DNA from: Mobula birostris | Lineage: Eukaryota | Assembly: GCF_030028105.1 (NCBI RefSeq) | Contig: NC_092391.1 | Coordinates: forward strand, 41,947,223-42,011,222 | Direction of reading: 5' to 3' | Length of the DNA stretch: 64,000 nt | In this document: piece by piece, positions 7,354-64,000 of the stretch | How the letters are laid out: each line of letters begins with the position of its first letter | How positions within the stretch are numbered: the first letter of the stretch is position 1 | Notes under the pieces: generated by a model | Databases searched by the model: none | Told to the model about the DNA's origin: nothing | Seen by the model: the letters and a program-made list of their open reading frames with translations, nothing else | Made by a program: the position numbers and the translations under genes

Positions 7354-7799
7354 AGTGAAGTGTGTTTTCAGCTCCTCCCTGCACTGATTGAGTGGTGTGA
7401 TGTGATATCTGCCTTTCTCTCTCCACAAGCACAGCTTGACCTGTGATTTCCAAAGCTTCCTGTTTTTCTTTTTAAAGACATTGTCCTTAGTGGAAAGCCA
7501 TTGTCTAAAAGGCTAAAAAATGTATCACCAATCAATAATGCCTCAATACTGACACTATTTATCCAAAATAATAGGTCTTGGTCAGTGGTTGTACATATGG
7601 AGTTTTGAGAGGAATGCTTCAATTATTGGATATCACATCCTTAAAAAACTGAATTGCTTTCTTTAAGATCCAAAATACTGCTATACCCGAGTTGGGCAGG
7701 GCTTGTGAAGAGAAAAGGAAAGTTACTCATAGAACCTCAAAGCATGGAAGCCGGCTCTTCTGAGTACCATGTTCACGTTAACCACCAAGTACCCATATA

Positions 7800-14143: not shown

Positions 14144-17100
14144 GTGAGCAGTAATACTTTGTCACTGTTCAGAGAAAGATCTGTAATGCTTTAACTTGGT
14201 AAAGCCAATGAACATTATTTCCTTATAATTGAACTATTACTGCTGTTCTAATGCAGCAAACATCTAATAGATGTACAACACAAAATAATCTGCAGATGCT
14301 GGGGTCAAAGCAACACTCACAACACGCTGGAGGAGCTCAGCAGGTCAGGCAGCATCCGTGGAAACGATCAGTCAACGTTTCGGGCCGGAACCCTTCGTCA
14401 GGACTGTAGAGGGAAGGGGCAGAGGCCCTATAAAGAAGGTGGGGGGAGGGTGGGAAGGAGAAGGCTGGTAGGCTCCAGGTGAAAAACCAGCAAGGGGAAA
14501 GATAAAGGGGTGGGGGAAGGGAGGCAGGGAGGTGATAGGCAGGAAAGGTGAAGAAAGAATAGGGGAAAACACAATGGGTAGTAGAAGGAGGCGGAACCAA
14601 GAGGGAGGAGGTAGGCAGCTGGGGGAGGGGGCAGAGTGACATAGGGATAGGAGAAGAGAGGGAGAGGGAATTACCAGAAGTTGGAGAATTCTATGTTCAT
14701 ACCAAGGGGCTGGAGACTACCTCGACGGTATATGAGGTGTTACTCCTCCAACCTGAGTTTGGCCTCATCATGGCAGTAGAGGAGGCCATGTATGGACATA
14801 TCTGAATGGGAGTGGGAAGCAGAGCTGAAGTGGGTGGCTACTGGGATATCCTGTCTGTTGTGGTGGACGGAGCGGAGGTGCTCGACGAAGCGGTCCCCCA
14901 ATCTGCGTCAGGTTTCACCGACGTAGCAGAGGCCGCACCGGATGCAATAAATGACCCCAACAGACTCACAAGTGAAGTGTTGCCTCACCTGGAAGGACTG
15001 TTTGGGGCCCTGAATGGTGGCAAGAAAGGAGGTGTAGGGACAGGTGTAGCACTTACGCTTACAGGGTAAGTGCCAGGTGGGAGATCCATGGGGAGGGATG
15101 TGTGGACCAGGGAGTCGCACAGAGACCAATCCCTGCGGAAGGCGGAGAGGGGTGGAGAGGGAAAGACGTGCTTAGTGGTGGGGTCCTGTTGAAGGTGGTG
15201 GAAGTTGCAGAGGATAATGTACTGGATCCGGAGGCCAGTGGAGTGGTAGGTGAGGACAAGGGGAACTCTGTCCCTGTTGTGGTGGCGGGAGGATGGGGTG
15301 AGAGCCGATGTGCGGGAAATGGAGGAGGTGCGGGTGAGGGCGTCATTGATGACTGCAGAAGAGAAACCACGATCCTTAAAGAAAGAGGACATTTGAGATG
15401 TCCTGGAACAGAAAACCTCATCCTTGGAGTAGATGTACAAGTTATTTTTATACTATGTTGGTACATATTTTTAGTGTGTATTTGTTTAAAAACAAGTAAA
15501 ATACTTTTTTGTCATGATTCTTATGTTGTGAAAATGTTAAGCTGCAATTAGACAATGTGGTAATAAGAAATATTAAAACTTATTTGTGACATGAAAAAGA
15601 ACTAGTCACTTATGGAATGTTTATTGGCTTCATGATCAAACAGAAGTTTGACTATTTCTACAAACTGCAAAGCACGATGCAGTCTGATACATCAAAGAGC
15701 TTACTGCGAATTTTGCTGCCATTGCACTTAGTCTGAGGTGTATTTGGAACTGATGATCAGGGGTCAGCCATTCCTATTTTGTCATCATCCAGTCTGGCTC
15801 TTTAAATTTATTTTAAATTAATGCAGCAAAGCATCTATAGATATGAAAGTTTATTTTCGGTTGCAACGCAGTAAAGGTAGGATTTCAGTAAAGAAACAGC
15901 TTTAAAATATTTCATTGTGGAGGAAAGCCATGCAAATATTGCAATGTTACCAATTTTTAAAAATATACATCACTTTTTTTTATTCCACGGAAAAACGGCA
16001 TTGTCATTGTAAAACAAAAACATTATGGATATGGAAATAATGTTTAAATGTCAATAGAGAAATTGGAAGTAATGGACAAAGACTTCATGATTTCAAATGC
16101 ACCCAGCACCTAACTTGCCCTGGTGACTCCAGTTTGTAAATCTGTGAAGTACACAAGGAGTGGATATGAATATATTTGGTTCACTGCTTTCATATGTATC
16201 ATAAATTCAGATTTATGCTCTAATGGAAGTGATTGTCAGTGTTGTAATGTGAACGGGAGAAGTACTGCAGCTACTGGATACTGAAGTGTTTTATTCAACA
16301 AAATGAGACCCTCTCGGAGGAAGAAGCCTGTTTGACTCAATATTACATGACATTTTGCATGCTAAACATCAAAGAAAGCAGGAGAATTCTATAATTACAA
16401 TGTATCTGCAATATTTTGAATTACATATAGTTTTCACACCTCCTCCTTCGCACCCACACGTTCCAGGCACCCAAAATGAATGTTAATCAGCATTGTCTGG
16501 TTTTCAATTTACTGGTGTCCACAACTCCAGGAAACTATTGTCCAGTGCTACATTTTAAATTTAATCTACGATCCATGTTCAGGTCTAAAGGTTTGTTGCT
16601 GAAGTTAATATTTGCTATATACTGTAATTCCAGAATACGCCCTAGCAGTCAGGTCAGTAGGGCTCCAGAGTTTGTGTGTAAATATTTGAATTACACAATT
16701 TAAGAATTTATGGAAAGTGATTGAACCCATTTGGATTTTTATGTTTACTGACTTTCTGTATAATTAATATAGTTCCTTAGATATTTGTGTGATGTAGTAA
16801 GTGGGAAACATCCAGTTCCTTGAGTCTTGGACAAGATGAAAAAGAAAGTGAATGGCTCTAGTAACGGAAACAATACTTTGAGAATTGTTTGCAGTTAGCA
16901 GTGATCATAAGCAGAGCATTGTGCAGCCAGGTTGGATAATCACCGAGAGGAACCTTGTTATACTGTATTTCCATATGTTATTAAATAAGAGATTAGTTAA
17001 TGGAGCAGGATAATATGTAATTAGTGAAAACTTTGTGTGCCCCGTATTTAAAACAAAATTACATTCCTAGCAATCAAATAACAGCTGATGAAGATGGTTA

Positions 17101-20100
17101 TTACATACTGGTTATCTGGCTTTTTTGATGTCTTTCTAACTATGGTGTTGAATTGATTCTATTTCTCTCTGTTCTAGAAACATGTGATTGTATTAATCTC
17201 ATCAAAGTTGCTGGAGAACGCAGCAGGCCCGGCAGCGTCTATTGGAAGAGGTACAGTTGACGTTTCGGGCCGAGACCCTTCGTCAGGACTAACAAAGGGT
17301 CTCGGCCCGAAACGTCGACTGTACCTCTTCCAATAGATGCTGCCGGGCCTGCTGCGTTCACCAGCAACTTTGATGTGTGTTGCTTGAATTTCCAGCGTCT
17401 GCAGAATTCCTCATGATTGTATTAATCTGTTTTCTTCTCTTTAGCTCCCAGATGGAGTGAATGTATCAAAAGAAGCCCGCAGTGCAATATCCCGAGCAGC
17501 TAGTGTTTTTGTTCTCTATGCAACTTCCTGGTAAGAAACACCACTTAGCAGCAAAGCCTATTGCCTTGAAGCTCTGTAACTCTACTATGTAATTTCCTTC
17601 AGTTCAAGAATTACTAAAATGACAGTCTTAATCTGTTGTGTTCTGAATTTTGTGCTCACGGAAATGAAAGAAGCTTTTGCACCTTCATTAATCCCTTGGT
17701 TCTGGAGAGCTTTCGAGGCTTCATTAAATCTTGGTAAACTTCCCGAATCTTTCAATAGAGCGTCAATCTCTTTAATATTAAAGAAGGATAAACATCCTGC
17801 TCAATGTGCATCTTATAGACCAATATCTTTACTAAATGTTGACTCTAAAATTTTTTCTAAGTTATTAGCGAACAGATTAGAAAAAGTACTTCCTTTTATT
17901 ATTTCGGAAGACCAAACGGGTTTTATTAAAGGTCGTTACTCTTTTTATAACATTTGCACACTGTTAAATATTGTTTATACCCCCTCACAAAATGTTCCTG
18001 AGTGTGTTATCTCTTTAGATGCTGAGAAAGCTTTTGGTAGAGTAGAATGGCCTTATTTATTTAAGATGCTTGAAATGTTTAATTTTACACAGTGACAAAA
18101 TTGGCAAACTGTTGGCTAATCAACTGAAGTCTAATTATGCTAAATCTCAAATTAATCAGATTTATAACCAAAATGACCGACTGATACTTGACCATGTGGG
18201 GATTAATCAAACTTTCTGTGATTTTTATTCTTCCTTATATCAATCAGAGTCTCCTCGAGATTCTAAATATATGAATGATTTTTTAGATAATCTAGACTTC
18301 CCTGAGATTTCACAGGATATGTCTTCTATGTTAGATACTCCCATTACCACGGATGAGATTAAGAATGTTATTTTCTCTATGAATTTGGGGAAAGGTCCTG
18401 GCCCTGATGGGTTTACCGTAGAATTTTATAAATGTTTCGCACCTTCATTAATCCCTTGGCTCTGTAGGGTTTTTGAGGCTTCATTAAAACTTGGTAAACT
18501 TCCTGAATCTTTCAATAGAGCGTCAATCTCTCTAATATTAAAGAAGGATAAAGATCTTGCTCAATGTGCATCTTATAGACCAATATCTTTATTAAATGTT
18601 GATTCTAAAGTTTTTTCTAAGTTATTAGCAAATAGATTAGAAAAAGTACTTCCTTTTATTATTTCGGAAGACCAAAGGGGTTTTATTAAAGGTCGTTACT
18701 CTTTTTATAACATTCGCACACTGTTAAATATTGTTTATACCCCTCACAAAATGTTCCTGAGTGTGTTATCTCTTTAGATGCTGAGAAAGCTTTTGATAGA
18801 GTAGAATGGCCTTATTTATTTAAGATGCTTGAAATGTTTAATTTTAGCTCGAAATTTATATCCTGGATTAAATTGTTATATCATTCTCCCGTGGCCTCGG
18901 TCCGTACTAGCTCTCTAAGCTCACCTTTTTTCCCTCTTTTTTGAGGTACTCGACAAGGTTGTCCTCTTAGTCCTTTATTATTTGATATTGCATTATAACC
19001 TCTTGCAATTGCCATTCGAGAATCTCCAAATATTACTGGGATAACTCGGGGCTTAAAGTCCCATAAAATATCACTCTATGCTGATGACTTACTTTTATAT
19101 ATTTCTAATCCTCAAAAATCCATCCCTGCTGTTTTAGAGTTATTAGCACAATTTAGTCTCTTTTCAGGTTATAAATTAAATCTTAGTAAGAGTGAACTTT
19201 TCCCGATTAATAAACAACTTCCCTTATATCATAACTTTCTGTTTAAATTGATTAATAATTATTTTTCATATCTTGGGATTAAAATTACTTGTAAACACAA
19301 AGATTTATTTAAGATTAACTTTTTACCCTGAATTGACCATATTATTCAACTTTCATCTAAATGGTTTCCTTTATATTTAACTTTGATTGGTCGTATTAAT
19401 GCAGTTAAGATGTTTTTTCTGCCAAAATTTCTATATATATTTCAGGCATTACCGATTTTTGTTCCAAAATCTTTTTTTGATAAAGTTGACTCAAAAATTT
19501 CTTCATTTATTTGGCAAAATAAAAACCTGAGACTGGGTAAAATACATTTACAGAAAACTAAGAGAGATGGAGGTTTAGCATTACCTAACTTTAGATTCTA
19601 TTATTGGGCAATCAATATTCGACATATGAAATTTTGGTTACTTGACCAGGATATACTATCCATTCCTAAATGGGTAGCATTGGAATTACAATCTGTTCAG
19701 GGCTATGCACTTGGCTCTATTTTAGGTTCCTCTCTTCCTTTTGATTTGAAACGCCTTAAACAGGTGTCTAACCCGATAGTTAAATATACCTTACGTATTT
19801 GGTTTCCAATTCAGAAAATTTTTTGATCTTAACCAATTTGGGCTAGCGATTCCTATTTTAGGTAACATATTTTTTCCTCCCTCTTTTACGGATTGTGCTT
19901 TTCAAATTTGGAAGACTAAGGGTATTTCACGGTTTTTGGATTTATTTTTAGATGGTTCCCTTATGTCTTTTGAACAATTATCTAATAAATATAATTTATC
20001 AAGAATACATTTTTTTAGATATCTACAAGTTAGAAATTTCCTAAGTACTATACTTTCTTCCTTTCCAATGCTTTCTCCTACATACATTTTAGATACTATA

Positions 20101-23100
20101 ATTAACCTTAATCCATGTCAGAAAGGTGCATCGGCTATTATTTATAATATTATTACGAAACTTAGGAAATCCATTTGATAAGATTAGGTCAAATTGGGAA
20201 CAAGAATTAGGATCTATTATTTCCGTGGATGACTGGGGGCAGATTTTACAATTAGTCAATACTTCCTCTATCTGTGTTAAACATTACCTAATTCAATTTA
20301 AAGTTGTTCATAGAGCACATATGTCCAAAGATAAATTAGCTTGCTTTTATTCTCATATTAATCCTTTTTGTGATAGATGTCTGGGGCAGATAGCTTCTTT
20401 AACTCATATGTTTTGGTCTTGTCCTACACTGGAAACTTTTTGGAGAGACATTTTTAATATTATCTCCAAGGTATTGAATATAGATATCTCTCCTCACCCT
20501 ATTACTGCTATCTTTGGACTACCAAAAATCTCCAGTAATCTTTCTCCTTCAGCCCGTAGAATGATTGCATTTCTTACTTTAATGGCGAAAAGATGTATCT
20601 TACAACATTGGAAAGAGCTTAATGCTCCAACTACCTTTTTTTGGTTTTCTCAGACGATATTATGCTTGAATTTGGAGAAAATTAGAAGCAATCTTTATGA
20701 CTCATTTAAATTTGAACAGACCTGGAGATCTTTTATTCAATATTTTCATTTAATGTAATATATACCCTTGGTTTTTTTTACTGTTTTTAATGGAGGTCGG
20801 GATTGAGGACGTGATTTTAAGTTTTTTAACTCTGTTTGGTTTCAAGTTAGCCCATTGCTTTGCTTTGCTTTTAGTTAGTTGCACGGTGGGTTTTTTTGGG
20901 GGGGGGGGGTTTCCCTTTTCTTTATTGATATATATAAAAATTAGTATACTATTATGTTACCTTGGTATGTTATGTTTAAATTACATTGTATTTTTTTTGT
21001 ATTAATATCTCCTGTAATTTTATTATATTCTAACAGTGTATTAGTGCCTATATGGCTTACCTTTTTGTATACTTATTCAATAAAAAGATTTAAAAAGAAA
21101 GAAAGAAATGTTTAATTTTAGCTCGAAATTTATATCCTGGATCAAACTGTTATATCATTCTCCCGTGGCCTCGGTCCGTACTAGCTCTCTAAGCTCACCT
21201 TTTTTCCCTCTTTTTCGAGGTACTCGACAAGGTTGTCCTCTTAGTCCTTTATTATTTGATATTGCATTATAACCTCTTGCAATTGCCATTCGAGAATCTC
21301 CAAATATTACTGGGATAACTCGGGGCTTAAAGTCCCATAAAATATCACTCTATGCTGATGACTTACTTTTATATATTTCTAATCCTCAAAAATCCATCCC
21401 TGCTGTTTTAGAGTTATTAGCACAATTTAGTCTCTTTTCAGGTTATAAATTAAATCTTAGTAAGAGTGAACTTTTCCCGATTAATAAACAACTTCCCTTA
21501 TATCATAACTTTCCGTTTAAATTGATTAATAATTATTTTTCATATCTTGGGATTAAAATTACTTGTAAACACAAAGATTTATTTAAGATTAACTTTTTAC
21601 CCTGAATTGACCATATTATTCAACTTTCATCTAAATGGTTTCCTTTATATTTAACTTTGATTGGTCGTATTAATGCAGTTAAGATGTTTTTTCTGCCAAA
21701 ATTTCTATATATATTTCAGGCATTACCAATTTTTGTTCCAAAATCTTTTTTTGATAAAGTTGACTCAAAAATTTCTTCATTTATTTGGCAAAATAAAAAC
21801 CTGAGACCGGGTAAAATACATTTACAGAAAGCTAAGAGAGATGGAGGTTTAGCATTACCTAACTTTAGATTCTATTATTGGGCAATCAATATTCAACATA
21901 TGAAATTTTGGTTACTTGACCAGGATATACTATCCATTCCTAAATGGGTAGTATTGGAATTACAATCTGTTCAGGGCTATACACTTGGCTCTATTTTAGG
22001 TTCCTCTCTTCCTTTTGATTTGAAACGCCTTAAACAGGTATCTAACCCGATAGTTAAATATACCTTACATATTTGGTTCCAATTTAGAAAATTTTTCGAT
22101 CTTAACCAATTTGGGCTAGCGATTCCTATGTTAGGTAATATATTTTTTCCTCCCTCTTTTACGGATCGTGCCTTTCAAATTTGGAAGACTAAGGGTATTT
22201 CACGGTTTTTGGATTTATTTTTAGATGGTTCCCTTATGTCTTTTGAACAATTATCTAATAAATATAATTTATCAAGAATACATTTTTTTAGATATCTACA
22301 AGTTAGAAATTTCCTAAGTACTATACTTTTTTCTTTTCCAATGCTTCCTCCTACATACATTTTAGATACTATAATTAACCTTAATCCATGTCAGAAAGGT
22401 GCATCGGCTATGATTTATAATATTATTATGAAACTTAGGAAAACTCCATTTGATAAGATTAGGGTAGATTGGGAACAGGAATTGGGGTCTATCATTTCCG
22501 TGGATGACTGGGGGCAGATTTTACAATTAGTCAATACTTCCTCTATCTGTGCTAAACATTCCCTAATTCAATTTAAAGTTGTTCATAGAGCACATATGTC
22601 CAAAGATAAATTAGCTTGCTTTTATTCTCATATTAATCCTTTTTGTGATAGATGTCCGGGGCAGATAGCTTCTTTAACTCATATGTTTTGGTCTTGTCCT
22701 ACTCTGGAAACTTTTTGGAGAGACATTTTTAATATTATCTCCAAGGTATTGAATATAGATATCTCTCCTCACCCTATTACTGCTATCTTTGGACTACCTA
22801 AAATTTCCAGTAATCTTTCTCCTTCAGCCCGTAGAATGATTGCATTTCTTACTTTAATGGCGAAAAGATGTATCTTACAACATTGGAAAGAGCTTAACGC
22901 TCCAACCACCTTTTTTTGGTTTTCTCAGACGATACTATGCTTGAATTTGGAGAAAATTAGAAGCGATCTTTATGATTCCTCACTTAAATTTGAACAGACC
23001 TGGAGATCTTTTATTCAATATTTTCATTTAATGTAATTTTTTTCCTTCTCTTTTTTGATCCATATTTATATACCCTTGTTTTTTTTTTTAACTGTTTTTA

Positions 23101-26969: not shown

Positions 26970-27260
26970 ATAGTAATAGGAACCTGGAATTGACTATACT
27001 AATTTACAAGGTGGCACCTATATACAGTAATTATTGGTTTATATATGGTGGGTCAATTGTCATTGTAATGTTTGTGTGTATAATTACATGGGAGCTATTG
27101 GAAGATTATTTGTGGTTGCTGATTATTAGCCAAGTTACATTAATTGGTCAACAAATCCCAGCCTGCTTCTGCAACTGTTCACTATACAATTGGTGGTAAA
27201 GGCTGATATTGTGCAGTACATAGACCACAAGATATCCTGCACCCTGTGCCAGAAAGCACT

Positions 27261-28048
27261 CACACAAAATGCTGGAGGAACTCAGCAAGCCAGACAGCAT
27301 CTATGGAAAAGAGTAAATAGTCGACATTTTGGGCCATGACTCTTCATCAAGAGTGGAAAAGAAGGGGAGAAATTAGTAATAAGGTGGGGGGGACGGGAGG
27401 AAGAAGTGCAAGGTGGCAGTTGATAGGTGAAACCAGAAGAAGGGGAGGGGTGAAGTAACGAGCTGGGAAGTTGATTGATGAATGAGATAAAGGGCTGGAG
27501 AAGAGAATCTGATAAAAGACAGAAGACCGTGGAAGAAAGGGAAGGGGGAGAAGCACCAGAGGGAGGTGATGGGCAGGCAAGGAGATGGAGGTGAGCAAGG
27601 GAAACAGGAATGGGGAATGAAGAGAGGGGTGCAATTACTGGAAGTTTCTTTTCAACAAGAATTCAGTGAAACCCTCTCACTGCTCCCCGCCCCCACCAGT
27701 GACATCTGCTGCCCACTGGCTTCTACCTTCCAGTAAATGCACCCCCCCCCATTCCTGTTTCTCAGGAGCTCATTCCCACCCCCACCCCCCACCTTTCTTC
27801 CATGGTCTTCTGACCTATCAGAGTCCCCTTTATCTCTTTCACCAAACAACTTCCCAGCCCTTTGCTTCACCCATCACTTGCCACCTTGTACTCCTTCCTT
27901 CTCCACTTCCCTTCCAGTTCTGATGAAGGGTCTTGTCTGAAACCTTGACTGTTTAAATAATTCTATCCATGGATGCTGCCTGACCTGCTGAGTTCCTCCA
28001 GCATTTCGTGCACGTTGCTTTGGATTTCCAGCCTAACATTTTCTAATA
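27261..28048. mobile_element. Older PLE insertion made of two inverted ~390-bp 3' ends
   Basis: Purine-rich PLE 3' end (-) followed by a pyrimidine-rich copy (+) with degenerate CTGATGAAGGG..GAAA at about 27919-27945. Possible TSD CCAGAAAG(C/A)ACT at 27249-27260 and 28049-28060. Confidence 0.7.
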
Positions 28049-28746: not shown

Positions 28747-28947
28747 GCAACACATGCTAAATACTGGAGGAACTCAGCAGGCCAGGCAACATCTATGGAA
28801 AAGAGTACAGTAGACATTTTGGGCTGAAACCCTTCAGCAGAACATCGACTGTACTCATTTCCATAGATGCTGCCTGGCCTGCTGAGTTCCTCCAGCATTT
28901 TGTGTGTGTTGCTATGATTTCCAGCATCTGCAGATTTTCTCATTTAT
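28747..28947 (+). mobile_element. PLE-derived hairpin mini-element
   Basis: Inverted arms plus tail. 15-bp TSD TAGTGGG(T/G)AATAAGA at 28732-28746 and 28948-28962. Confidence 0.85.
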
Positions 28948-29038: not shown

Positions 29039-29156
29039 CTCACAACACGCTGGAGGAACTCAGCAGGTCGGGCAGCATCCGTGGAAATGATCGGTCAATG
29101 TTTTGGGCCGGAACCTTTCACTTTGACCCCAGCATCTGCAGAGTATTTTGTGTGTG
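29039..29156 (+). mobile_element. PLE-derived mini-element (inverted arm + tail only)
   Basis: 14-bp perfect TSD CAGACAATGCAAGA at 29025-29038 and 29157-29170; same subfamily as the 14279 element. Confidence 0.85.
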
Positions 29157-32836: not shown

Positions 32837-40785
<7,949 letters not shown>

Positions 40786-41035: not shown

Positions 41036-41199
41036 TCAAAGTTGCTGGTGACTCGATTGTACTTAGGGTTCCCTTAGGGTCTTGGCCCGAAACGTCGACT
41101 GTATGTCGTCGTCCTAGAGATGTTACCTGGCCTGCTGCGTTCACCAGCAACTTTGATGTGTGTTGCTTGAATTTCCAGCATCTGCAGAATTCCTGTTGT
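41036..41199 (+). mobile_element. PLE-derived mini-element in RPL12 upstream promoter
   Basis: 15-bp perfect TSD TCACAAAATATCAGA at 41021-41035 and 41200-41214. 17-bp inverted arm ATCAAAGTTGCTGGTGA / TCACCAGCAACTTTGAT. Confidence 0.88.
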
Positions 41200-42355: not shown

Positions 42356-44456
42356 TTTAGAAAGATTTAGAAGAATATGGGCAAATGAAACTAGCTTAGA
42401 TGGGCATTTTGGTTGGCATAAACTTCAGAAACGAAGGGTGACCAGAGCACTATGGCTGGAAGTATCTCAAAATAAAGCAACTGCAGATGTTTGCAATCTG
42501 AAATAAAGCAGAAAACGCTGGAAGTACCCGGCATCTCAGACCGTATGTGTAGAAAAACAAAGAGTTAAAGTATGAGGTGGAAAAATATCCTTCAACAGAA
42601 TCTTCCCTGTAATTTAAAACTAACCTGTTTTTCCCCCTTTTCCAGTTGCGATGAAAGATGTTTTACCTGAAACATTAACCCTGTTTCTGCCTGATCGGTT
42701 GAGTGTTTCCAGCATTTCCTATTTGTATGACCAGTGGAGTTTGATACAATTCAATCCCTTGCTCCTAGTTGTTCGAATTAAAGATGTGGATCTAAATGTT
42801 GGGGGTAGGAGGATGTATGATGAAGAAGATAGCAGATGATGCCAAAATTGGCTGCATGGTTGACCAGGAGGACAAAAGTCCTAGACTGTAGGAAAATTCG
42901 GATCATTTAGTCAGTCGGCAAAAGCATGGCAAATAAAATTTACTGTGGAGAATCGTGGGGTAATGCATTTGTGGAAATATCACAAGGCAAAGGAATATAC
43001 AATAGTGAGGGGGTATGGAGTGCTGTGAAGCAACTGATAGCTACGATATTTTAAAAGTAAAGGAAGGGTGATCAAAGCACATAGAGTATGTTTTATTTTA
43101 TTGCTAAATAGTTTTGCTCAACAGTTAAAAGGCACACAAGAGTGCTTTCCTTAATTAGCTGAAGCACAGTATGTAAAAGCAGGTGGGTTATCACGGCTTG
43201 GGTATGGCATGGAACAACTGGTTATTGTGTTAGGGTTGTACGTGGGCAGAAGGAATAGGGACCAGTGACCGTTTAGGTCAGTGAATCGGCAAGACCAGAG
43301 TTCAAGGCCTAGTGTTCAGGGTCCTGATACTGATGAGTCTACAGTTTGAGACCTAGTGTTTGGCAATCGGCTAGTCCTGTGATCAATTCCAAAGACCGAA
43401 GATCAATCAGAAGTCCGGAAGTTGAGGCCCGGTGGCTGGAACAAATCTCTGGAAGTCTGCTGGGGAAGTTCAATGTCCGCGAGTTCAAGTCCGCTGGAGG
43501 CTGAAGACATCCTGTCCTGAGTTTGGAGGACTGTGTATGTGCGTGGTCAGTGAGTGGGAGGGAGGGACTTGGTCATATGTGCCCGGTTGGTGGGTGGGAG
43601 GGGAGGAATGAGACTTGTTTTGCTGGTGTTGCTTTATCACTTGATACATTCTGCTTTAATTTGTACTCAGTGTTGTTCTGCTGAGCATTGCGGGCATACT
43701 GTATTATGTTGGCTCTGGAGTGTATGGCAAGCCTTCTTCCCCTGCCCCCCCCAGCACAACCTTAGGCATGTTGGTTGTGAATGCAAATAACATATTTCAC
43801 TGTAAGTTTCCCTGTACAGGTGATAAATAGGTCTGAATCTTGAATCTTAAAGTTGTGATTTCACTGGAATTCACGAGAGCGCGGAAGTGATTTGCAAGGA
43901 TACTGTCAGGACTGGAAGTTTATAGTTATGAATAAAGTATAACCAATGTCTATTTTGTTTGGAAGGGAGAGAGGGGACATATGTTGATGAAGAAGAGATT
44001 CCACAGATGTTGGAAATCCAGAGCGACAACACACACAAAATGCTGGAGCAACTCAGCAGGTCAGGCAGCATCTATGAAGACGGATAAACAGTTGACGTTT
44101 CCAGCCAAGAACGTTTATCAATACTTAATACCAGTGAAACCTTGTAACTTGGACCACACTAACAATATAACCTATAACTGAATTGTGACAACGGAGCTCT
44201 GAATCAGGTGCTTGCAGATAAGGACTAAGTTGGGTAGTTTTTTTTGACGTGATGGGACAGATGGCCTCCTGCCTAGTAAATTTTCTGTGATTCTATGCTC
44301 CTGTGATTTTCTGGTTGCAGTTGGCAGATAAAGATCGCGCTGTTTCGGATTGTTTTGTGTAACATAAGGGAAATGCCTTGAAATACTCAGCAGCTAATAC
44401 CGCAGCATCTGTGGAGGGTATTTCCAGTAATTGTTTTAGATTCCCAGTGCCTACAG

Positions 44457-44767: not shown

Positions 44768-47700
44768 GTGAGCAACGCAGCGGGGCCCACCCCCGGTCTG
44801 TCTCCCCGCTGTTTCCGCATCACTTTACCCCCCCCCCCCATCCTTCCCTGGGAAGTTTGCTCCGGGGGGAGGAGGTGGCTGCGCTTCCCTACCCCCCCCC
44901 CCGTTTCCCTAACGCTTAATCCCCATTAAATGTCTCCGATCTCCTCCCTGACAACAACCTGTGAACTTTCTTCGTTTCTCGAGCGAGGGAACTCTTCCCT
45001 CAAAACAAGACCAGGCGCCGGCTGTAATGGGGAGTAACGGCATATACTGTATTAGGTTGGATTGCGATAGTGGCCGCGGCAGGACTTTTGACGGGCAAGC
45101 GGTTTCCTGTCCACTTTTCTGATCGGGCTGCAAATTTAAATTCATACGTGTCAACTAACCTCATCTGCCAGTCGCCTTCTGTGGTGCCGTGGTTGCAAAT
45201 TACTCTCAGTATGAGGGAGGTTTACACACCCCGACTGCAGGAGTAATACAGGGCAACCAGCGTTTACCAGTTCAGCCATGGGTTTCTTCATTCTTCAACA
45301 TTCAGCCTTTGACAGTGCTCAGGCTGTGTGCAGGATTTCTCACTGTTTGCCTGATTGGTAATAATTATATCATTGTCCATTATTGCAGCAACACTATACG
45401 GAATGTATAGATTAAAATAATTCTGGTTATTTACTTCCAACGGGGTCGAGTGCTGCTGAGATACATGCTAGGATGCACTGGGATGCATCATCGGTGATGT
45501 AACCTGGAGTGATGGGTGTTTTCGGGTTCACTCTCGCCCAGCCGACCCAGCCAGGGTTGATCAGGTCCTGGCTGGTGTCCAAGCAGCCTCTGTGATGGTT
45601 CTGATCTTTTCTTTACAGCCCCTCTCATCCCTGTAGTGCCAAGGAGGGAGTAGGTTCTGCCCACCCAGCAGCCAACAAGACCTCTATGCCCCACCTCACA
45701 CTGTGCCCTCCACCGCTGCCTCTGGCACTGCTCTTCCTGGTGAAGTGACTGAGGCATCGTAGTGCATTCCAGAAGCCCAACCCAGTCTGAGTTTTTAAAA
45801 AAGACACCTACCTCTGACGTCTCCTAAACTTTCCTCCACTCACCATGCTTCATCAACGTTTGAGGAACAATCTTCGTGTCATGTGCTAGCATTTGGTAGT
45901 TTGCAAGATGGGCAAAATTTGAATATGCTCAAGATATAACACATTTCTTCCCACTTCAACAGGCCCGAGAAGCCGGTGCAGATGACATCCTGGACATTTC
46001 AAAGTGTGAGCTGTCTGAGGTAAGCTGTCACCATAATCAGCCCTTGTGGTTGGAACTGCTGGTTCCATTAGACAACTAGGCACTGACCAGTGATTTGGGA
46101 TTGTGTTCAAGAGCCGAGAGGTAATGTTGCAGCTAGAAAGGACCCTGGTCAGACCCCACTTGGAATACTGTGCTCAGTTCTGGTTGCCTCACTACAGAAA
46201 GGATGTGGAAACTATGGAAAGAGTGCAGAGGAGATTTACAAGGATGTTGCCTGGACTGACGGAGGATGAGAGGTGACCTGATAGAGGTGTATAAGATGAT
46301 GAGAGGCATTGATCGTGTGGCTAGTCAGAGGCCTTTTCCCAGGGCTGAAATGGCTAGCACGAGAGGGCACAGTTTTAAGGTGCTTGGAAGCAGATACAGA
46401 GGGGATGTCAGGGGTAAGTTTTTTACACAGAGGGTGGTGAGTGCGTGGAATGGGCTGCCGGTGACGGTGGTGGAGGGGGAAACGATAGGGTCTTTTAAGA
46501 GACTCCTGGATAGCTACATGGAGCTTAGAAAAATAGAGGGCTGTGGGTAAGCCTAGGTAATTTCTAAAGTAAGTACATGTTCGGTATAGCATTGTTTGCC
46601 AAAGGGCCTGTATTGTGCTGGAGGCTTTCTATGTTTCTGTGACCCTCCACGTTGGTGGGGTTGCATTAATACACAGTCTACTCAATTCTCTAGGAAAAAC
46701 TTGCCTTTCAATGGTTTCATCCATTAGACTTATCACACATAGTGCTCCTGCAAAAAGTGGTTTGATTTATAAGCAGTTCACTTGATTATCAGGTTACTTG
46801 AAGATAAATTTTGTTGAGACAATTTTCCTGCGCTTTGTTGAGTAGTGACACGGAATCCTTTCCATTCACCTGGGAGAACAGAAAAGAACCTCAGCTTAAA
46901 ATCTTAATTGCTTGGAAAGAAACATAGAAACATAGAAAATAGGTTCAGGAGTATGCCATTCAGCCCTTCGAGCCTGCACCGCCATTCAGTATGATCATGG
47001 CTGATCATCCAACTCAGAACCCTGTACCAGCCTTCCCTCCATACCCCCTGATCCCTTTAGCCACAAGGGCCATATCTAACTTCCTCTTAAATATAGCCAA
47101 TGAACTGGCCTCAACTGTTTCCTGTGGCAGAGAATTCCACAGATTCACCACTCTCTGTGTGAAGCAACACACATCAAAGTTGCTGGTGAACGCAGCAGGC
47201 CAGGCAGCATCTCTAGGAAGAGGTACAGTGGACGTTTCAGGCCGAGACCCTTTGTCAGGAGTCCTGATGAAGGGTCTCGGCCTGAAATGTCGACTGTATC
47301 GCTTCCTAGAGATGCTGCCTGGCCTGCTGCGTTCACCAGCAACTTTGATGTGTGTTGCTTGAATTTCCAGCATCTGCAGAATTCCTGTTGTTTACTATCT
47401 GTGTGAAGAAGTTTTTCCTAATCTCGGTCCTAAAAGGCTTCCCCTTTATCCTTAAACTGTGACCCCTCGTTCTGGACTTCCCCAACATCGGGAACAATCT
47501 TCCTGCACCTAGCCTGTCCAATCTCTTTGCAGTTTTATACATTTCAATAAGATCCCCCTTCAACCTTCTAAATTCCAGAGGAGTATGAGCCTGGTCGATC
47601 CAGTCTTTCATCATATGAAAGCCCTGCCATCCCAGGAATCGATCTGGTGAACCTTCTTTGTACTCCCTCTATGGCAAGAATGTCTTTCCTCAGATTAGGG

Positions 47701-50700
47701 GACCAAAACTGCACACAATACTCCAGGTGTGGTCTCGCCAAGGCCTTGTACACCTGCAGTAGAACCTCCCTGCTCCTGTACTGGTATCCTCTTGCTATGA
47801 ATGCCAGCATACCATTTGCCTTTTTCACCGCCTGCTGTACCTGCATGCCCACTTTCAATGACTGGTGTACAATGACACCCAGGTCTTGTTGCACCTCCCC
47901 TTTTCGTAATCGGCCACCAGTCAGATAATAATCTGTTTTCCTGTTCTTGCCACCAAAGTGGATAACCTCACATTTATCCACATTAAATTGCATCTGCCAT
48001 GAATTTGCCCACTCACCTAACCTATCCAAGTCACCTTGCATCCTCTTAGCATCCTCCTCACAGCTAACACTGCCGCCCAGCTTCGTGTCAACCGCAAACT
48101 TGGAGATGCTGCATTTAATTCCCTCATCTAAGTCATTAATATATATTGTAAACAACTGGGGTCCCAGCATTGAGCCTTGCGGTACCCCACTAGTCACTGC
48201 CTGCCATTCTGAAAAGGTCCCATTTATTCCCACTCTTTGCTTCCTGTCTGCCAACCAATTCTCTATCCACATCAATACCATACCCCCAATACCGTGTGCT
48301 TTAAGTTTGCACAGTAATCATCTGTGTGGGACCTTGTCAAAAGCCTTTTGAAAATCCAAATATACCACATCCACTGGTTCTCCCCTATCCACTCTACTAG
48401 TTACCTCCTTAAAAAATTCTATGAGATTCATCAGACATGATTTTCCTTTCACAAATCCATGCCGACTTTGTCCGATGATTTTACGCTTTCTAAATGTGCT
48501 GTTATCACATCTTTGATAACTGACTCTAGCATTTTCCCCATCACTGATGTCAAGCTAACCGGTCTATAATTCCCCGGTTTCTCTCTCACTCCTTTTTTAA
48601 AAAGTGGGGTTACATTCCACCCTCCAATCCTCAGGAACTTATCCAGAATCTAAAGAGTTTTGAAAAATTATCACTAATTACCACTATTTCTTGGGCTGCT
48701 TCCTTAAGCACTCTGGGATGCAGACCATCTGGCCCTGGGGATTTATCTGCCTTTAATCCCTTCAATTTACCTAATACCACTTCCCTACTAACAGGTATTT
48801 CCCTCAGTTCCTCCATCTCACTAGACCCTTGGTCCCCTACTATTTCCGAAAGATTATCTATGTCCTCCTTAGTGAAGACAGAACCAAAGTAATTATTCAA
48901 TTGGTCTGCCATGTCCTTGTTGCCCATGATCAATTCACCTGTGTCTGACTGTAAGGGACCTACATTTGTCTTAACCAATCTTTTTCTTTTCACATATCTA
49001 TGAAAGCTTTTACAGTCAGTTTTTATGTTCCCTGCCAGCTTTCTCTCATAATCTTTTTTTCCCTTTCCTAATTAAGCCCTTTGTCCTCCTCTGCTGGACT
49101 CTGAATTTCTCCCAGTCCTCAGGTGTGCTGCTTTTTCTGGCTAATTTGTACATTTCTTCTTTGGAATTGATACTACCCCTGATTTCCCTTGTCAGCCACG
49201 GGTGCACTACCTTCCCTGGTTTATTCTTTTGCCAAACTGGGATAAACAATTGTTGTAGTTCATCCATGCAATCTTTAAATGCTTGCCATTGCATATCCAC
49301 CGAAAGATGGCATCTCCTGCCTCTTCTTGCAGCAACACCATACAATGAGTGTCAGCTTGAGTGGCAGAATGAGGGTTGACCCATAGCTCCCTGAATCAGA
49401 GGCAAGAAGTGGGGTCAGGATTACCACCATTGAGGCGGGACTGGCACTGAGGCCATCTTGAGTGAGTAGTCTCCTTCAAAACAGACTCTCAAGTGTAGGT
49501 CTGCTTGAAAGGAAGCTGAGATGTAGCAGTTGCAGCTGAACAGAGATTTGGCATGTATTGTAATGGATAAGATGAGATGATAAGCCAGATATAGAAATTA
49601 CAAGGTGTCTGTAGCAGCCGGGTAACTATACTCTAGATATAGAACTAACAAGGAATCTGTAGGACTCTTTCTCTTGAGCTCTTTTTCTGTCCCTCCTGCA
49701 GACCACTGCAAGTTTGGAGTAAAATATTGAAGATAAGGCAGAGTTTCATCACTGGGGTGGCCTGGTAGTACAGTGGTTAGCACGACGCTTTACAGTACAG
49801 GCGACCGGCGTTCAATTCCCACCGCCACCTGTAAGGAATCACAAATAGAAGAAAGCCTGCAAATGCTGGAAATCCGAGCAATACATGGAAGGGTTTTGGA
49901 CCGAAAAGTCGACTGTACTCTTTTCTGCAGGTGCTGCCTGGCCTGCTGAGTTCCTCCAGCATTTTGTGTGTGTTGCTGCCTGTAAGGTGTTTTTACATTT
50001 GCCCCGTGACCACGTGGGTCTCTTTCGGGTGCTTCAGTTTCCTCCCACAGTCCAAAGACCTACCGGTTGGTAGGTTAATTGTTCATTGTAAATTGTCCCA
50101 TGATTAGTCTGGGATTAAACTGGGGGAGGGCTGGGTGACACAGCTGGAAGGGCCGGAGGGGCCTATTCTGCACTGTATTTCAATAAACAAATGAAATGTA
50201 GATAAACGTAGTTTTCTTGCTCTAATCAGCTGCTGGGAGCTTCAGTTAAACGTAAATCTACAGTCAAAGCACAATCTTCAGCTGCCAGCACTGGTTGGCC
50301 AACAGCAGAATGAATTGCAGCTGATTTGCATGGTCTGATCAGTGCATAATATATTTTTAATGTTAATTGAATGGGATTCTGCAGTAATACCATTTGTTTT
50401 TCAATGTTGTGTTGCCAGATTCCAGCCAGTGTCTTTTCCATGTGCAGAGTCCTGCAGAAGAAGGTAAGACTTTCTGCATGCATTCGCTTTCTTGCACCCG
50501 ATGCCTGTGAATGCCCTGCTCTCAGCCCACACCGGTACCTGCTCTTCCCCCACTCTGGTACCTACTCTTCACGTCTCTTCCTGTATGCAAGGTCTCCTTC
50601 TCCTCTTTACTTCATGCTCCTATTTTTACATATTCTTCCTTACTTCTACTCCAGTGTCAAAAATTATATGCATATCTATATAACATATTGGCTATTGCCT

Positions 50701-56700: not shown

Positions 56701-59700
56701 CTCCTAAGGGTTCCTTCACCTCCATCTCTCCAATCACCTCCGGTTCATTACACAATACCCAATCCAGTACAGCCGATCCCCTAGTAGGCTCAACAACAAG
56801 CTGTTCTAAAAAGCCATCTCGCAGACATTTTACAAATTCTCTCTCTTGAGATCCAGTGCTGACCTGATTTTCCCAATCTACTCGCATGTTAAAATCCCCC
56901 ACAATTATCATAACACTGCCCTTCTGACAAGCCTTTTCTATTTCCAGTTGTAATTTGTAGTCCACATTCCTGCAGCTGTTTGGGGGCCTATAAATAACTG
57001 CCATCAGGGTCCTTTTACCCCTGCTATTTCTTAGCTCAACCCATAAAGATTCTGTACCTTCCGATCCTATATCACCTCTTTCTAATGATTTAATATCATT
57101 TCTTACCAATAAAGCCACGCCTCCCCCTCTGCCTACCTTCCTATCCTTCCGATACACCGTGTATCCTTGGACGTTCAGCTCCCAGAGACACGTATCCTTT
57201 AGCCAAGAAAGAAGAAAGTTAGTATAAAATACGAAAACACTTTCGTAATTGACTTGATAGATGTTACGAGGCTGTGTAGGATGGCAAGGTAAAGGGGGTA
57301 ATGTTGAATATTAGGAGGAGAGTGTATGTGGAGGGAGAGATTAAGGAAGAGTTGAGGGGAGTGTAACCAACTTGAAGAAAAGATGGAGTTAAAATCAGCG
57401 AAGATGGAAATCTGCCTCTTGCAGAGGAGGAGGAAAGGAAACTTGGCACCCATGTTGCCGGACAGGCTAAGGATAGCAGATCTTCTTTCCTAAAGGACAT
57501 TGCAAAAATCCCGTATGGTTCATCAACCAGCCAGTGGTTTAAGGTCACCACGTCACAGCTTCCTTACAGCACAGCGGGACATCAGCTGTCCCTTCAACAA
57601 ACCTATCAATTCCATCCTGAAAACTCTAGTTCTGTTTCTATTACCTCCTATAGGAAGTGAGTGATGTAGGATAACTTTAAAATGTTCTACATTAATTTAT
57701 TAATTCATTGGATTTAAGTATCCTATTCATGAATGTAAAATTTGAGCTGTTTTCTGTAGGTCATCAGTCTGGGCTAATTATCCATTCAGTTGCCATTTCC
57801 CATTGGCATCACAATGAATTGTGCCTGGAAAAAAAGTGTATTGAAAGTAATGTGACTCAGAGGGGCAGCGTGAGGTGGAGAATTGCTCAGTTCTTGTACT
57901 TGTGGTCCCTATGATAAGTGGCCTTGCTGTGTGCTGCATTATTCAATGTTGTGTCTGTCAGCTCTTACTTGTGCATGTTATCCTCTCTACTGCTGATTTT
58001 AAGTTATTTTCATTAGTTACTGCTTAGCTTCTGTGCGTTCGAACCCATGACCTGTAACCCTGGCTTTTTCATGTATCAAGCTCAGCAAAGGCAGCAGTTT
58101 CAGCTCAGCATTTGCTCTCTGAGCCCGTGTACTAAGCGCAGTGAAACCACGTAATATCTCTCATTCAGCAATATGATTTCTGACCAGTTTTTTATCTTCT
58201 GTCCTGAAGCCTTTGTCGCCTTCTCAGGATTTGTTCCATGGATGGTATTTTCCCATCAGTACCTTGCCCGAGTGGCCAATATTCATGGTTTCGGTCCAAA
58301 ACGTCAACTGTACTTTTTTCCATAGATGCTGTCTGGTCTGCTGAGTTCCTCCAGCATTTTGTGTGTGTTGGCTAATATTCATATTTGTGAAGTAATACTG
58401 GAGTGTTAACCAGCTCTTTGGTTTAGGGATTACCACAAGCTAGGACAAGGTGGGACACAAGAAGTTCTATTCCTGGCAAGTTGTACAAATGACCACACAA
58501 ATTAAGAGAATAGGTCACTTGTCCCTTCGAGGTTGCTGTATGTAATAAGATCATGCTCAGTCTGATGTAATCTCAACATGAATAGAGGGGAGATTACTAG
58601 TATAAAGGAGTGGGGCAAGAGTTGGTGATAGGTTCATCCAGGTGAGGAAGTTTAATTAGCATATGGTATAAACCAGGGGGAGACAAGTATGAAAGTAAGT
58701 TGAATCCACGCCAGGGCTTGTTGATCTTGTTAGTCTGTCTCTTGAGAGTCCTAAATTTATCCAAGGTATACAAACACCCTACAACTTGTTTTTTTATAAG
58801 CACCTGCCTTTGTTAATATCTTATTTAACTGTACTGGGTTGATCCTCTACACTTCCGATCAGATGTAATACAGGAATTCTCTACCTCAGAGAGTTGTGGA
58901 GACTAGATGACTGGAGATAATTAAAGAGGAGGGGATATATTTTTTGAAAGATCAGAGGTTTGAAGGTGAAAAGTGACTGTCACAGAAGAGGCAGGTTTGC
59001 CCAAGAGCTGAGGAACTGGGCAGATCAACTGGGACCATGCTGAAGAATGGGATGTTGTGGACCACTCCTCCTGTTTTGTCATGTCCTTGTGTAAGCAGAA
59101 AGAGATGTCCAATTTTCATACTAATGCCTGAATTTCTATTTTGCAAAGACTGTAACTATTGGTACCTCTGGTGCTTTGAGTCATGATTATTAGGTTTAGA
59201 ACCTTCCAGTAGAGCTGGAGAACACTGCATGAGTTAATGTTTTCTGTAATACCTTTTTGATAACATTTAACCTCCTTGTCTGTCAGCAGAATAATTAGCA
59301 AGTTTTCTTTCACATGAAGGCGCAGCTTGTCTGAAAGCCTTGCTGCTCTGCTCTGTTTTTCAGGTTTTAATCATTCACTCCAATCACTTGGCAACGCTAC
59401 AGCCCAAGTCGTGTAACATTCAGGATTTGTCATTGCTGAAGGTAAATGCTGAAGGCCACAGCCATGTAAGGTTGCTCCTGGATTATGTTCATTCTAACAC
59501 CCTTGTGAAGGCTTTAGGCCTCGCAAAATGTGAGATGAGAGATCTTTGATTTTCTGTTTAGTTAACTATATTTCCCTTCTCTTAATCTTTTTTTTTGCCT
59601 CTTCACATACCAAGTGCATGCTTTGCTTCCCTCCCTTTCTCTTGTGACTGGGAGAATGTGTGGCTGCTAATATTGGCAATATGCATTTGTAGAACTGGTA

Positions 59701-61890: not shown

Positions 61891-62559
61891 TTCATCGTAC
61901 AGCATTGAAACAGGCACTTAGGTCCAACTCAGCCAAGGTGCCTTACATTTGACTGCATTGAGCCCACATCTTTGTAAACCTTTCCTGTCTTGAACCAGGC
62001 CAAATGTCTTTTTAATACTGCAGTTGTACCCAACCGTACCATTCCCTCTGGCAGCTCATTCCTTTTACACATCACCTTATGCGTGGAGAAAACAGCATCT
62101 CAAAGCCCCTTCAAATCTTATCCCCTTTCACATTAAGCCTATACCCTCTAGTACCCCAGGAGAAAATGATTGTGACTGTCCCCTCCTCGTAATTTTATAA
62201 TCCTCTAGAATAGCAAATCTCAGTTTTTGTGCAGAAACTGCGGGAGGAAGGTGGCTGGACAATAACATATCACTTAATTAGAAAAAGGGTAAGGTTCTGT
62301 TTGGATCCCAATTGGCATGGTGAAGTGCGCCAATAGCATCTTGTGTGGAAAAGCTCAGCAGGGGTGTTGTCTGTCTAAAACGGATATGGTCAAGTGTTGT
62401 GGTAGTAGCAGGCAACCTGTTGGAATGGATTTCCATTTTGAAGCTGCTATGGGTAGGAATGGTAGATTTTATAGGAAGGATCATCAAGAATTAGATATTT
62501 CAAAATGTTTCAGGAGAGAACTCCAGGATCTGGAGCCAGGATGGCTGAAGTTTCAGTTC

Positions 62560-63190
62560 AAAGCAACACACACAAAAGGCTGGAGGAACCCAGCAGGTCA
62601 GGCAGCATTTATGGAAATGAATAGATAGTCGAAGTTTTTGGGCCAAGACCTTCAGGGCTGAGAAGGAAGGGGGAGGATGCCAGAATAAAAAGGGAGGGGA
62701 AAGAGGCTAGCTGGAAGGTGATCAGTGAAGCTATGTTGGTGGGAAAGGTCACGGGCTGGAGAAGGAGAGATCTGATGGGAGAGGAGAGCGGACCATATGA
62801 GGAGGGGACCCAGGGGAAGTAATAGTCAGGTGAGAAGAGGTAAAGGTTGGAGTGAGGATTAGAGGAAGTGGGGGTGAATTTGTTACTGGAAAGAGAAATC
62901 AATATTCATGCCATCATGTTGGTGAGTATCCAGATGGAATCGAAGGTGTTGCTTCTCCACCCTGAGAGTGGCCACATCTTGGCCCAAGAGGAGGCTGTGG
63001 ACTGACACGTCAGAACAGGAATGGGAATTGGAATTAAAATGTTTGGCCACCGGGAAGTCCCGCTTGTGGCGGACGGAGCAGAGATGCCCCCAATTTACAA
63101 CGGGTCTCATCAATGTGGAGGAAGCCGCATCGGGAGCACCAGACACAACAGAAGCTCCAGCAGATTCACGGGTGAAGTGTTGCCTCACAA
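62560..63190 (-). mobile_element. PLE 3' fragment with GIY-YIG C-terminal remnant
   Basis: ORF 62883-63200 ..PVAKHFNSNSHS..EKQHLRFHL..GMNIDF, homologous to the 14279 element. Confidence 0.8.
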
Positions 63191-63476
63191 TAGACGACAC
63201 AATTACAGTTGCCTGTCCTTCTGAAAGCCCTTGCTGGATACCACTTACACAGTGCTCAAGCAGTGAATTATTTTGGAGTGCAGCAGCTAATAGATAAGCA
63301 GGCCCAGTAAGTAAGTGACATATGAATGATTTATTCTAGGCTTTTTCTGGCTGTATTGATTGAAGGTGAAATTTCAGCTAATATGGGATCTTTAGCAATG
63401 AGTGGGCTAATGTGATATCTCCAACAGTGCTGAACTCACTGAGTTCTGCAGTAATCAGTCAGCCTGAATTCAAGGA

Positions 63477-63587
63477 ACACTCACAACACGCTGGAGGAAC
63501 TCAGCAGGTCGGGCAGCATCCGTGGAAAAGATCGGTCGATGTTTCGGGCCAGAACCCTTCGTCAGGACTGTAGAGGGAAGGGGCAGA
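63477..63587 (-). mobile_element. PLE 3' end fragment with hammerhead motif (63533-63570)
   Basis: CAGUC CUGACGA A GGGUUCUGGCCC GAAA C AUC GACCG on the minus strand. Confidence 0.78.
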
Positions 63588-64000
63588 TAAATCCAAGGAG
63601 TTATTAACCTGTTACAGAATGCTACAATACGGTACATGAGGATATCATGTTGATGATCAATTCTGAGTTGGCTCTGTGAAAGGATTATGGAGTCTGATGT
63701 ATAATTTTATCCACTCCCACTTTGAAAGACATTACCAATCTGTTTTCAGTTTAATCAGGCAGACAGCACCACAGCACATTACAGATTGCAACAACTATCA
63801 TCAAAGAAAATGTTCCCCTCTTCTCACCTCTGCTTCTTTTACCAATTACCTTTAATCTGATTTTTGTAGCAAAGTAGAGCAACGTAAAGGAGATTACTGG
63901 AATAAAATAATTAATTCTTCCAGCACTTCGCATGTCATGTGTAATTGTTTTCCCCTTGATTGTAGAGATGCTGATTGTTTGCTTGGCCTTCTGTGCCCTG

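Follow-up and report, generated by a model that had tools for sequence, protein, structure and literature searches.

A 64,000-nucleotide stretch of the Mobula birostris genome (assembly GCF_030028105.1, contig NC_092391.1, positions 41,947,223 to 42,011,222 of the forward strand; hereafter the window) was analysed with respect to a hammerhead ribozyme motif at positions 14369-14406 of the minus strand. The motif is very probably a real minimal type I hammerhead of the Penelope type. The explanation that accounts best for the data as a whole, and which is held with high confidence, places minimal hammerhead ribozymes in the 3' pseudo-long terminal repeat (pLTR) of Penelope-like elements (PLEs) of the Neptune/Nematis type in the ray, the copies being mostly relics. 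The large copy count consists mostly of decayed, solo or hairpin-locked retroelement ends and is not a family of working ribozymes. Nearly all genomic copies, the one at 14369-14406 included, are probably inert because most insertions appear to be solo or inverted ends that decay neutrally.

The minus strand of 14369..14406 reads CAGUC CUGACGA A GGGUUCCGGCCC GAAA CGUU GACUG and was scored as a fully intact minimal type I hammerhead by descriptor and by alignment, in accordance with the consensus of Fig S3 of PMC4209133. Stem I contains 5 bp (14406-14402 paired with 14373-14369) and is followed by C3 at 14401, and a single extra base, A9.1, follows A9 at 14394. Stem II (14393-14390 with 14385-14382) has the form GGG-UUCCGG-CCC, that is 3 bp with a possible fourth U.G pair. 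The GAAA box occupies 14381-14378, U17 lies at 14374, and helix III is formed by A15.1-C15.2-G16.2-U16.1 (ACGU, 14378-14375) with a loop length of 0. All 11 core bases and H17 are present. The NUH triplet is GUU and the predicted cut falls between 14374 and 14373; the initial annotation of this DNA had placed the cut after GUC, which was found to be incorrect for this copy. Its description of a 5-bp stem I with the invariant core, and of a Penelope-type minimal hammerhead of the dimer-requiring kind with a palindromic, loop-less ACGU stem III, was borne out. An alternative register of helix III, with a cut after GUA, was discarded on inspection as it has no stem I partner. Three motif-internal variants were present, among the 40 of 82 variant rows examined, in one DNA run containing the stretch, and these fell on H17 and on two loop II bases, which are the free positions.

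The possibility that the hammerhead likeness arose by chance inside an ordinary repeat was evaluated with a descriptor patterned on the published minimal hammerhead, taking 200 block-wise dinucleotide shuffles of the window as control. The strict form of the descriptor (Watson-Crick helix III, stem I of at least 2 bp) gave a single match in the window, 14369-14406, compared to a shuffle mean of 0.035, and none of the 200 shuffles matched when stem I was set to at least 5 bp. When helices I and III were loosened, five matches were obtained, which are the five copies of the initial annotation (shuffle mean 0.47, maximum 3). The bare pattern CTGANGA-N1..30-GAAA was not clearly above chance, with 12 occurrences in the window vs 7.6 expected and 6 of 100 shuffles equal. 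A chance origin would agree with a fold z-score of merely -1.7, with covariation in the window that was not significant, and with the Rfam scan of the window, in which no hammerhead family appeared among the 3 matches at E<=1; the matches obtained, to microRNA models, arise from a microsatellite and inverted repeats. Against it stand the rarity of descriptor matches in the shuffles, the position of the motif at the published site of PLE hammerheads, and the presence of the 9.1 base, the G10.1-C11.1 pair and the palindromic 15.2-16.2 positions although these lie outside the published descriptor. As far as sequence allows, the chance explanation is refuted and its probability is negligible.

The intact copy is carried by a 5'-truncated PLE of 1,151 nt (14279..15429, minus strand) bounded by an 11-bp direct repeat, which was read as a target-site duplication (left 14268..14278, right 15430-15440); random window pairs reached at least 11 bp in 3 of 2994 trials. 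The insertion contains a broken C-terminal PLE frame (14671..15425, minus strand) covering the region after the reverse transcriptase (RT) core, a CX3CxxC linker finger and a GIY-YIG endonuclease with cysteines in its core and the R, H, E and N residues. This is followed by a pyrimidine-rich 3' untranslated part (14407..14670, minus strand) continuing into stem I, and, past the hammerhead, by the conserved pLTR end (14279..14368, minus strand), which includes an optional tail of ~33 nt (about 14279-14311). The motif lies ~265 nt past the stop of the GIY-YIG frame, within one target-duplicated insertion, in agreement with the earlier placement of a GIY-YIG reading frame upstream of it. The frame is broken by one frameshift and two in-frame stops and was compared as a protein read through the breaks with X. 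Its product showed 70-82% identity with five Hypanus and Mobula proteins (best 5 of 10 matches) and 43% identity (E 7e-35) with the C-terminus of an 893-aa protein having RVT_1 and GIY-YIG matches; the upstream piece of the frame matched the same protein (E 1e-14). The linker-finger cysteines C13, C17 and C20 of P0001 were invariant in 9 of 9 aligned proteins, and a CX2-5CxxC finger in the RT-endonuclease linker marks Neptune and Nematis PLEs (PMC8557442). The Neptune/Nematis traits of inverted pLTR, optional tail and target duplication were also present in the window. The host element is probably a Neptune/Nematis-type PLE of a myliobatiform ray.

The hammerhead repeat was confirmed as the most numerous family of the window by copy count, with 16 segments vs 8 for the next family. 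The profile search of the window gave 26 pLTR arms at E<=0.01 and 35 matches overall, of which 19 were training sequences; the covariance model built from 22 arms recovered only its training arms and 2 chance matches at E 0.75. Among the 22 aligned arms the unpaired core of 11 bases was kept in five, and all the helices as well in one, which is 14369-14406. A9.1 was present in every arm, the commonest 10.1-11.1 pair was G-C (10 of 22), and C15.2-G16.2 was kept in 8 arms, the changes in the remaining ones being mostly of CpG type. The four cores initially called intact do retain their unpaired core bases, but all helices are preserved only in 14369-14406: at 17255-17290(-) stem I closes with a C.A mismatch, the copy at 47260(+) carries G10.1.U11.1, U15.2 and a 4-bp stem I, and that at 63533(-) has A16.2, which abolishes the palindrome, together with a stem I mismatch. 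The copy at 27914(+), previously regarded as degenerate, keeps its 11 core bases and is changed in helix III (C16.2). CpG-type transitions account for the majority of the substitutions in the copies.

The summed contig depth in one DNA run was 2.3-2.6 million over the motif vs 11.4 on the unique flank, a ratio of ~2x10^5 which gives an order-of-magnitude hint only, because contig depth is not a copy number. Two raw-read DNA runs searched on 14200-14800 left the motif without reads; the 23 and 6 reads that did align were of low identity and lay outside it. A high copy number of the repeat in the genome is plausible, also from the 26 arms in 64 kb, and to this extent the initial suggestion of a very large ribozyme family stood; the ribozyme part of it did not, as only one of the 22 arms is fully intact and most are decayed ends. 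A search of metagenomes for the 3' half of the motif yielded 26 loci, none having a CUGANGA box upstream and none matching the window over more than 21 nt, and these were dismissed as chance matches in microbial DNA.

The arrangement of the copies was in accordance with PLE insertion. The other copies are short pLTR ends. Five of the 18 units tested lie between perfect target duplications of 11-15 bp, whereas 3 of 2994 random pairs reached at least 11 bp, and the arm ends fall at two places ~33 nt apart, corresponding to arms with or without the tail. Head-to-head pairs were observed at 17.2, 27.3-28.0, 28.8, 41.1 and 47.2 kb; in the pairs with both arms whole, one arm is tailed (fully or partly) and the other tail-less. 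The units at 29.1 and 49.9 kb consist of a body and an inverted tail-only arm. PLE traits on record include the inverted pLTR, an optional tail of 30-40 bp, its presence on one arm only, and head-to-head junctions that are palindromic (Craig et al. preprint; PMC3846280).

The 5' starts of 21 arms were examined, and three old arms with no clear 5' boundary were left out. Relative to C3, 12 of the remaining 18 arms start at -4..+9, one at -22 and one at +22, four are long, and the cut site (+28) is the start of none. The zone is common to arms with and without the tail, and the end point therefore depends on position and not on length. The post hoc test of this clustering gave a corrected p of 6e-4 to 3e-10 according to the null range. 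The clustering is taken as a lead only, since visual judgement among three references set the arm boundaries, and the seeds that recovered the arms contained the motif. The clustered ends agree with templates other than linear cleavage products.

Several causes of the clustering were considered and found no support. Fold-back of the complementary DNA (cDNA) would involve a weak hairpin, at -1.8 to -4.4 kcal/mol; with an RNA hairpin as the block, stalling would be expected near +32 and not at -4..+9; and a single master palindrome is countered by junctions that differ between pairs of the same subfamily. A splice acceptor in the 5' strand of stem I was not supported either, although a pyrimidine tract and CAG are present. 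Two ray protein models enter the repeat ~46 nt past C3, downstream of stem I (a third was uninformative), and the single RNA-run joint near stem I is better explained by a microhomology deletion. In the Penelope intron of Drosophila virilis the splice acceptor does lie at hammerhead stem I (PMC4209133). The 3'-splice-site-like pyrimidine tract with CAG, 2 nt before C3, was observed in long arms of several subfamilies, at 14403-14430(-), 27895-27918(+), 62655-62675(-), 42620-42646(+) and 4545-4570(-).

The folding of the motif was predicted for the monomer and the dimer. In the published model two motifs exchange strands and the palindrome forms a shared helix III (PMC4209133). The intact copy allows a nested dimeric hammerhead free of mispairs (-19.3 kcal/mol), and the monomer is predicted to fold as a rod sequestering the core. 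The copies at 17.2 and 47.2 kb form ~90-bp hairpins of -175 and -200 kcal/mol with a stem II probability of 0. A single Schistosoma minimal hammerhead showed no cleavage and its dimers low cleavage (PMC4209133), the motif of the anole cleaves only with protein, and RNA-seq gave 0 reads ending at its cut site (PMC11167929). Among Xenopus retrozyme dimers one of nine cleaved and eight did not (bioRxiv 10.64898/2026.07.22.740005). The predicted folding fits this published picture of weak, dimer- or protein-dependent cleavage.

Certain results weigh against reading the repeat as a PLE-borne hammerhead. The endonuclease fragment of the window scores under the Pfam GIY-YIG cut-off (E 0.052), and its GIY-YIG identity thus rests on homologues. 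The window holds no RT core and no full-length element, the 5' truncation of its copy having removed the RT core, and the clade call therefore rests on the linker finger and not on a tree. The predicted hammerhead dimer is less stable than two monomers (-25.8 kcal/mol) or the best dimer (-30.9 kcal/mol), and stems I and II have a predicted pairing probability of ~0.001 in 310 nt of context. The covariation score of the 22 window arms, which are decayed individual copies and not family consensi, was 0.152 vs 0.143 for shuffled data, and 165 of 500 shuffles were as high. The paired cells amounted to 72.5% across the arms, with 172 of 500 shuffles as high; both scores exceed all slid controls, but the structure was derived from the same sequences. 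The initial statement that stem II is kept while its loop varies is descriptively correct, and is no proof of selection since covariation was not above shuffles.

The activity of the copies was weighed between several explanations. A very large ribozyme family at work on host transcripts would accord with five core-intact motifs in 64 kb, one of which is fully intact, with family sequence among the contigs of a run tentatively classed as RNA, and with intermolecular dimers, which are possible in principle. This is quite improbable, as 21 of the 22 arms are damaged or cut, the solo copies have no partner in cis, and the 17.2- and 47.2-kb copies are locked in hairpins. In the RNA-like run the unique flank of the intact copy was at zero depth, and the published behaviour of the Schistosoma, Xenopus and anole motifs described above points the same way. 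It is very unlikely that the dispersed copies cut host RNA to any effect. For the motif of the master elements, a weak and assisted ribozyme is judged somewhat the better expectation. The repeat could also be a non-LTR retrozyme, that is tandem non-autonomous units making circular RNA, since published retrozymes derive from PLE pLTRs and one chondrichthyan genome is reported to contain them (bioRxiv 10.64898/2026.07.22.740005), and most window arms are without coding sequence. No head-to-tail motif array was present among the arms found in the window, the copies are solo or inverted with individual target duplications, and two are joined to endonuclease sequence; a retrozyme is on this evidence highly improbable.

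The remaining alternative, that the hammerhead-derived motif is non-catalytic here and acts as a protein-binding or folding element or as an RNA-template boundary in retrotransposition, has more in its favour. No arm among the 18 begins at the cut site and 12 begin close to C3, tailed or not, the rod-like monomer fold sequesters the core, hammerhead core mutants left insertion of the anole PLE in vitro unaffected (PMC11167929), and Naiad PLEs proliferate without a hammerhead (Craig et al. preprint). The catalytic bases are, however, kept from cnidarian to reptile PLEs, including a C3-G8 to U3-A8 covariation (PMC4209133), and the anole motif does cleave, with C3G/G8C partly rescuing cleavage (PMC11167929). 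A non-catalytic role is considered rather unlikely, and it is compatible with the preferred explanation of a PLE-borne minimal hammerhead in mostly relic copies.

Under that preferred explanation the mechanism may be sketched as follows. Within RNA from an active element that is partly tandem, two motifs would exchange strands, ACGU pairing with ACGU to give a shared helix III of 4 bp, and each stem I helix would likewise form between the two copies; cleavage after H17 would be slow and would probably need the element's own protein. These steps follow published PLE work. In the anole PLE both target strands are cut and extended from two RT start sites, which define the tail (PMC11167929). For the ray genome we infer that the majority of insertions arose as short cDNAs, with priming at two neighbouring positions on an RNA that had not been cut to a linear end at the hammerhead, and double priming on one RNA would yield the observed head-to-head and tail-only forms. 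The outcome would be very many solo or inverted 80-130-nt ends, followed by neutral decay. A further proposal, which is only tentative, is that the hammerhead 5' edge, from stem I up to where stem II begins, constitutes a fixed RT end point, and that two cDNAs, primed at the two 3' sites, both terminate there and are joined head to head. This would mass-produce a hairpin element of ~200-230 bp, possibly on the order of 10^5 copies, silencing its own ribozyme and supplying long intronic double-stranded RNA. Such an end point might be set by a short pLTR RNA starting there or by a motif-bound protein stopping the enzyme and, if true, would be a second role for PLE hammerheads beyond cleavage.

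The individual units of the window were as follows. The pair at 17200..17413 is joined at the hammerhead 5' edge and has a 15-bp target duplication; its minus arm is tail-less with a core-intact motif (17254-17291) and its plus arm is tailed with two core changes. A pair of the same subfamily at 47165..47397, with an 11-bp target duplication, lies within a CR1-like long interspersed nuclear element (LINE), and its plus-arm motif (47259-47296) is core-intact with two helix changes. The pair at 28747..28947 (15-bp target duplication with one mismatch) has both motifs decayed or cut. A longer pair with arms of ~400 nt at 27257..28048 has a core-intact motif with broken helix III at 27915-27951(+) and a decayed minus-arm motif. 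In the pair at 41036..41199 (15-bp target duplication) one arm is mostly lost and the plus arm begins at A9.1. The two units of body plus inverted tail-only arm are located at 29039..29156 (body on the minus strand, 14-bp target duplication) and 49850..49978 (body on the plus strand), and in both the body begins inside the core.

The solo arms include a short one beginning in stem II at 58287..58373 (plus strand, 9-bp target duplication) and another short one at 63467..63590 (minus strand), which belongs to the subfamily of the intact copy, is 93% identical, and has a core-intact motif (63533-63570) with damaged helix III and stem I. A tailed arm beginning inside the core lies at 40209..40339 (minus strand), and a similar arm at 43998-44120(-). 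An older 5'-truncated PLE with an endonuclease remnant and a decayed motif occupies 62558..63190 (minus strand) and is 72% identical to the 14.7-15.0 kb stretch. A related PLE family is represented by an old and divergent inverted pair at 42470..42722, in which the hammerhead is decayed. Other old arms lie near 2017-2105, 4481-4549, 23931-24023, 26260-26437, 39845-39928, 41352-41549 and 44374-44461, some of them only at E 0.002-0.05. The hairpin unit at 17241-17333 scored 36 bits against a plant microRNA precursor model having a threshold of 69, and PLE hairpin units could be mis-annotated as microRNA hairpins.

The surroundings of the repeat contain genes and further transposable elements. 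Exons of RPL12 (60S ribosomal protein L12) were located at 32926-33210(-), and the CpG-rich stretch 40001-41000 is an island, probably the RPL12 promoter. The interval 44696-44767(+), with CpG-rich sequence at 44501-45000 and a further site at ~50448(+), was read as the first coding exon of another gene, which lies head-to-head with RPL12 and looks like LRSAM1 (the comparison itself gave no name). The 47.2-kb hairpin unit would fall in an intron of this gene. Ray gene models with host-gene names (P0002, P0003, P0011, P0012, P0013 and P0014) contain translated PLE pieces; P0013 and P0014 enter the repeat at the same point, ~46 nt past C3, which is consistent with a cryptic splice acceptor and may reflect exonisation or an annotation artefact. 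L1/Tx1-like LINE fragments at 17580-23420(+) show internal tandem duplications with spacings of ~760 nt and 2,274 nt and 94-99% identity. CR1-like LINEs lie at 54516-57310(-) and 46240-49070(-), the former with open frames of 357, 405 and 173 aa over endonuclease-like and RT regions. The remnant at 8059-8780(-) resembles a Tc1/mariner transposase (Pfam gave no match). A second short dispersed repeat, probably a short interspersed nuclear element, occurs at 24863-25260, 28611, 31021, 50011-50087 and 53199-53275.

The motif is of an already known kind and is new by host and subfamily only. Small hammerhead variants associated with PLEs, having a diminished stem III and cleaving as dimers, were reportedly described by Lunse, Weinberg and Breaker. 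Massive and widespread occurrence of minimal hammerheads in metazoan genomes was reported by Cervera and De la Pena in 2014 (PMC4209133), with the consensus CUGANGAH-helix II-GAAAN-palindrome-NUH and with zero-loop C-G-U-C or C-G-U-U as the commonest helix III in Fig S3. The ray motif shares with these PLE hammerheads the type I design of CUGANGA, one base, G10.1-C11.1, GAAA, zero-loop palindromic 15.2/16.2 and UH, as well as the short helix I, the pyrimidine-rich sequence upstream and the location in the 3' repeat of 5'-truncated PLEs, mostly as single copies and also as opposite-strand pairs. The Acropora (Neptune) and Ixodes rows of that work have nearly the same design. The ray motif differs in its shorter helix II (3-4 bp vs the usual 5-8), in opposite-strand pairs that often abut at the motif whereas the published pairs are 100-700 bp apart, and in density, which would greatly exceed the 4,000-9,000 per genome of coelacanth and Xenopus (PMC4209133) if the window is representative. 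Cartilaginous fish were absent from Table S1 and the examined Fig S3 rows of PMC4209133. The literature searches brought up no paper with PLE hammerheads of sharks or rays as its subject; one chondrichthyan is mentioned in a 2026 preprint, and the work of Lunse et al. and supplements outside those examined may list some. The present analysis adds a ray Neptune-type family to the class described in 2014, and for ribozyme counts in shark and ray genomes it is a warning that most are dead retroelement ends.

Poseidon PAc of Anolis carolinensis (Frangieh et al. 2024, PMC11167929) resembles the ray element in the pLTR hammerhead and in the two 3' ends defining the tail, and the cutting and extension of both target strands with uncut RNA as the dominant template would be further shared features. 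PAc belongs to the Penelope/Poseidon clade, has no linker finger and its reading frame begins inside the hammerhead (PMC11167929), whereas the ray element has a linker finger. The non-LTR retrozymes of Li, Clavereau and Pollet (2026, bioRxiv 10.64898/2026.07.22.740005) are likewise derived from the PLE pLTR and carry a type I hammerhead, but their defining feature is a tandem arrangement of units that each contain a hammerhead, and the window arms form no such array. The ray element also agrees with the endonuclease-bearing (EN+) Neptune and Nematis PLEs (Craig et al. 2021, PMC8557442; Arkhipova et al. 2013, PMC3846280), which share the C-terminal GIY-YIG with R/H/E/N, the CX2-5CxxC linker finger, the inverted 5'-truncated pLTR, the optional tail of 30-40 bp, the head-to-head palindromic junctions and the target duplications of 8-15 bp. 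Junctions clustered at the hammerhead 5' edge were observed in the ray copies and are not described in the examined passages on Neptune and Nematis PLEs. The function of the hammerhead in EN+ PLEs is stated to be still unclear (Craig et al. preprint). The target-duplicated ray copies constitute a natural record of the start and end points of PLE reverse transcription, and the clustering of their 5' ends, if genome-wide, would be a direct handle on the role of the hammerhead in PLE transposition.

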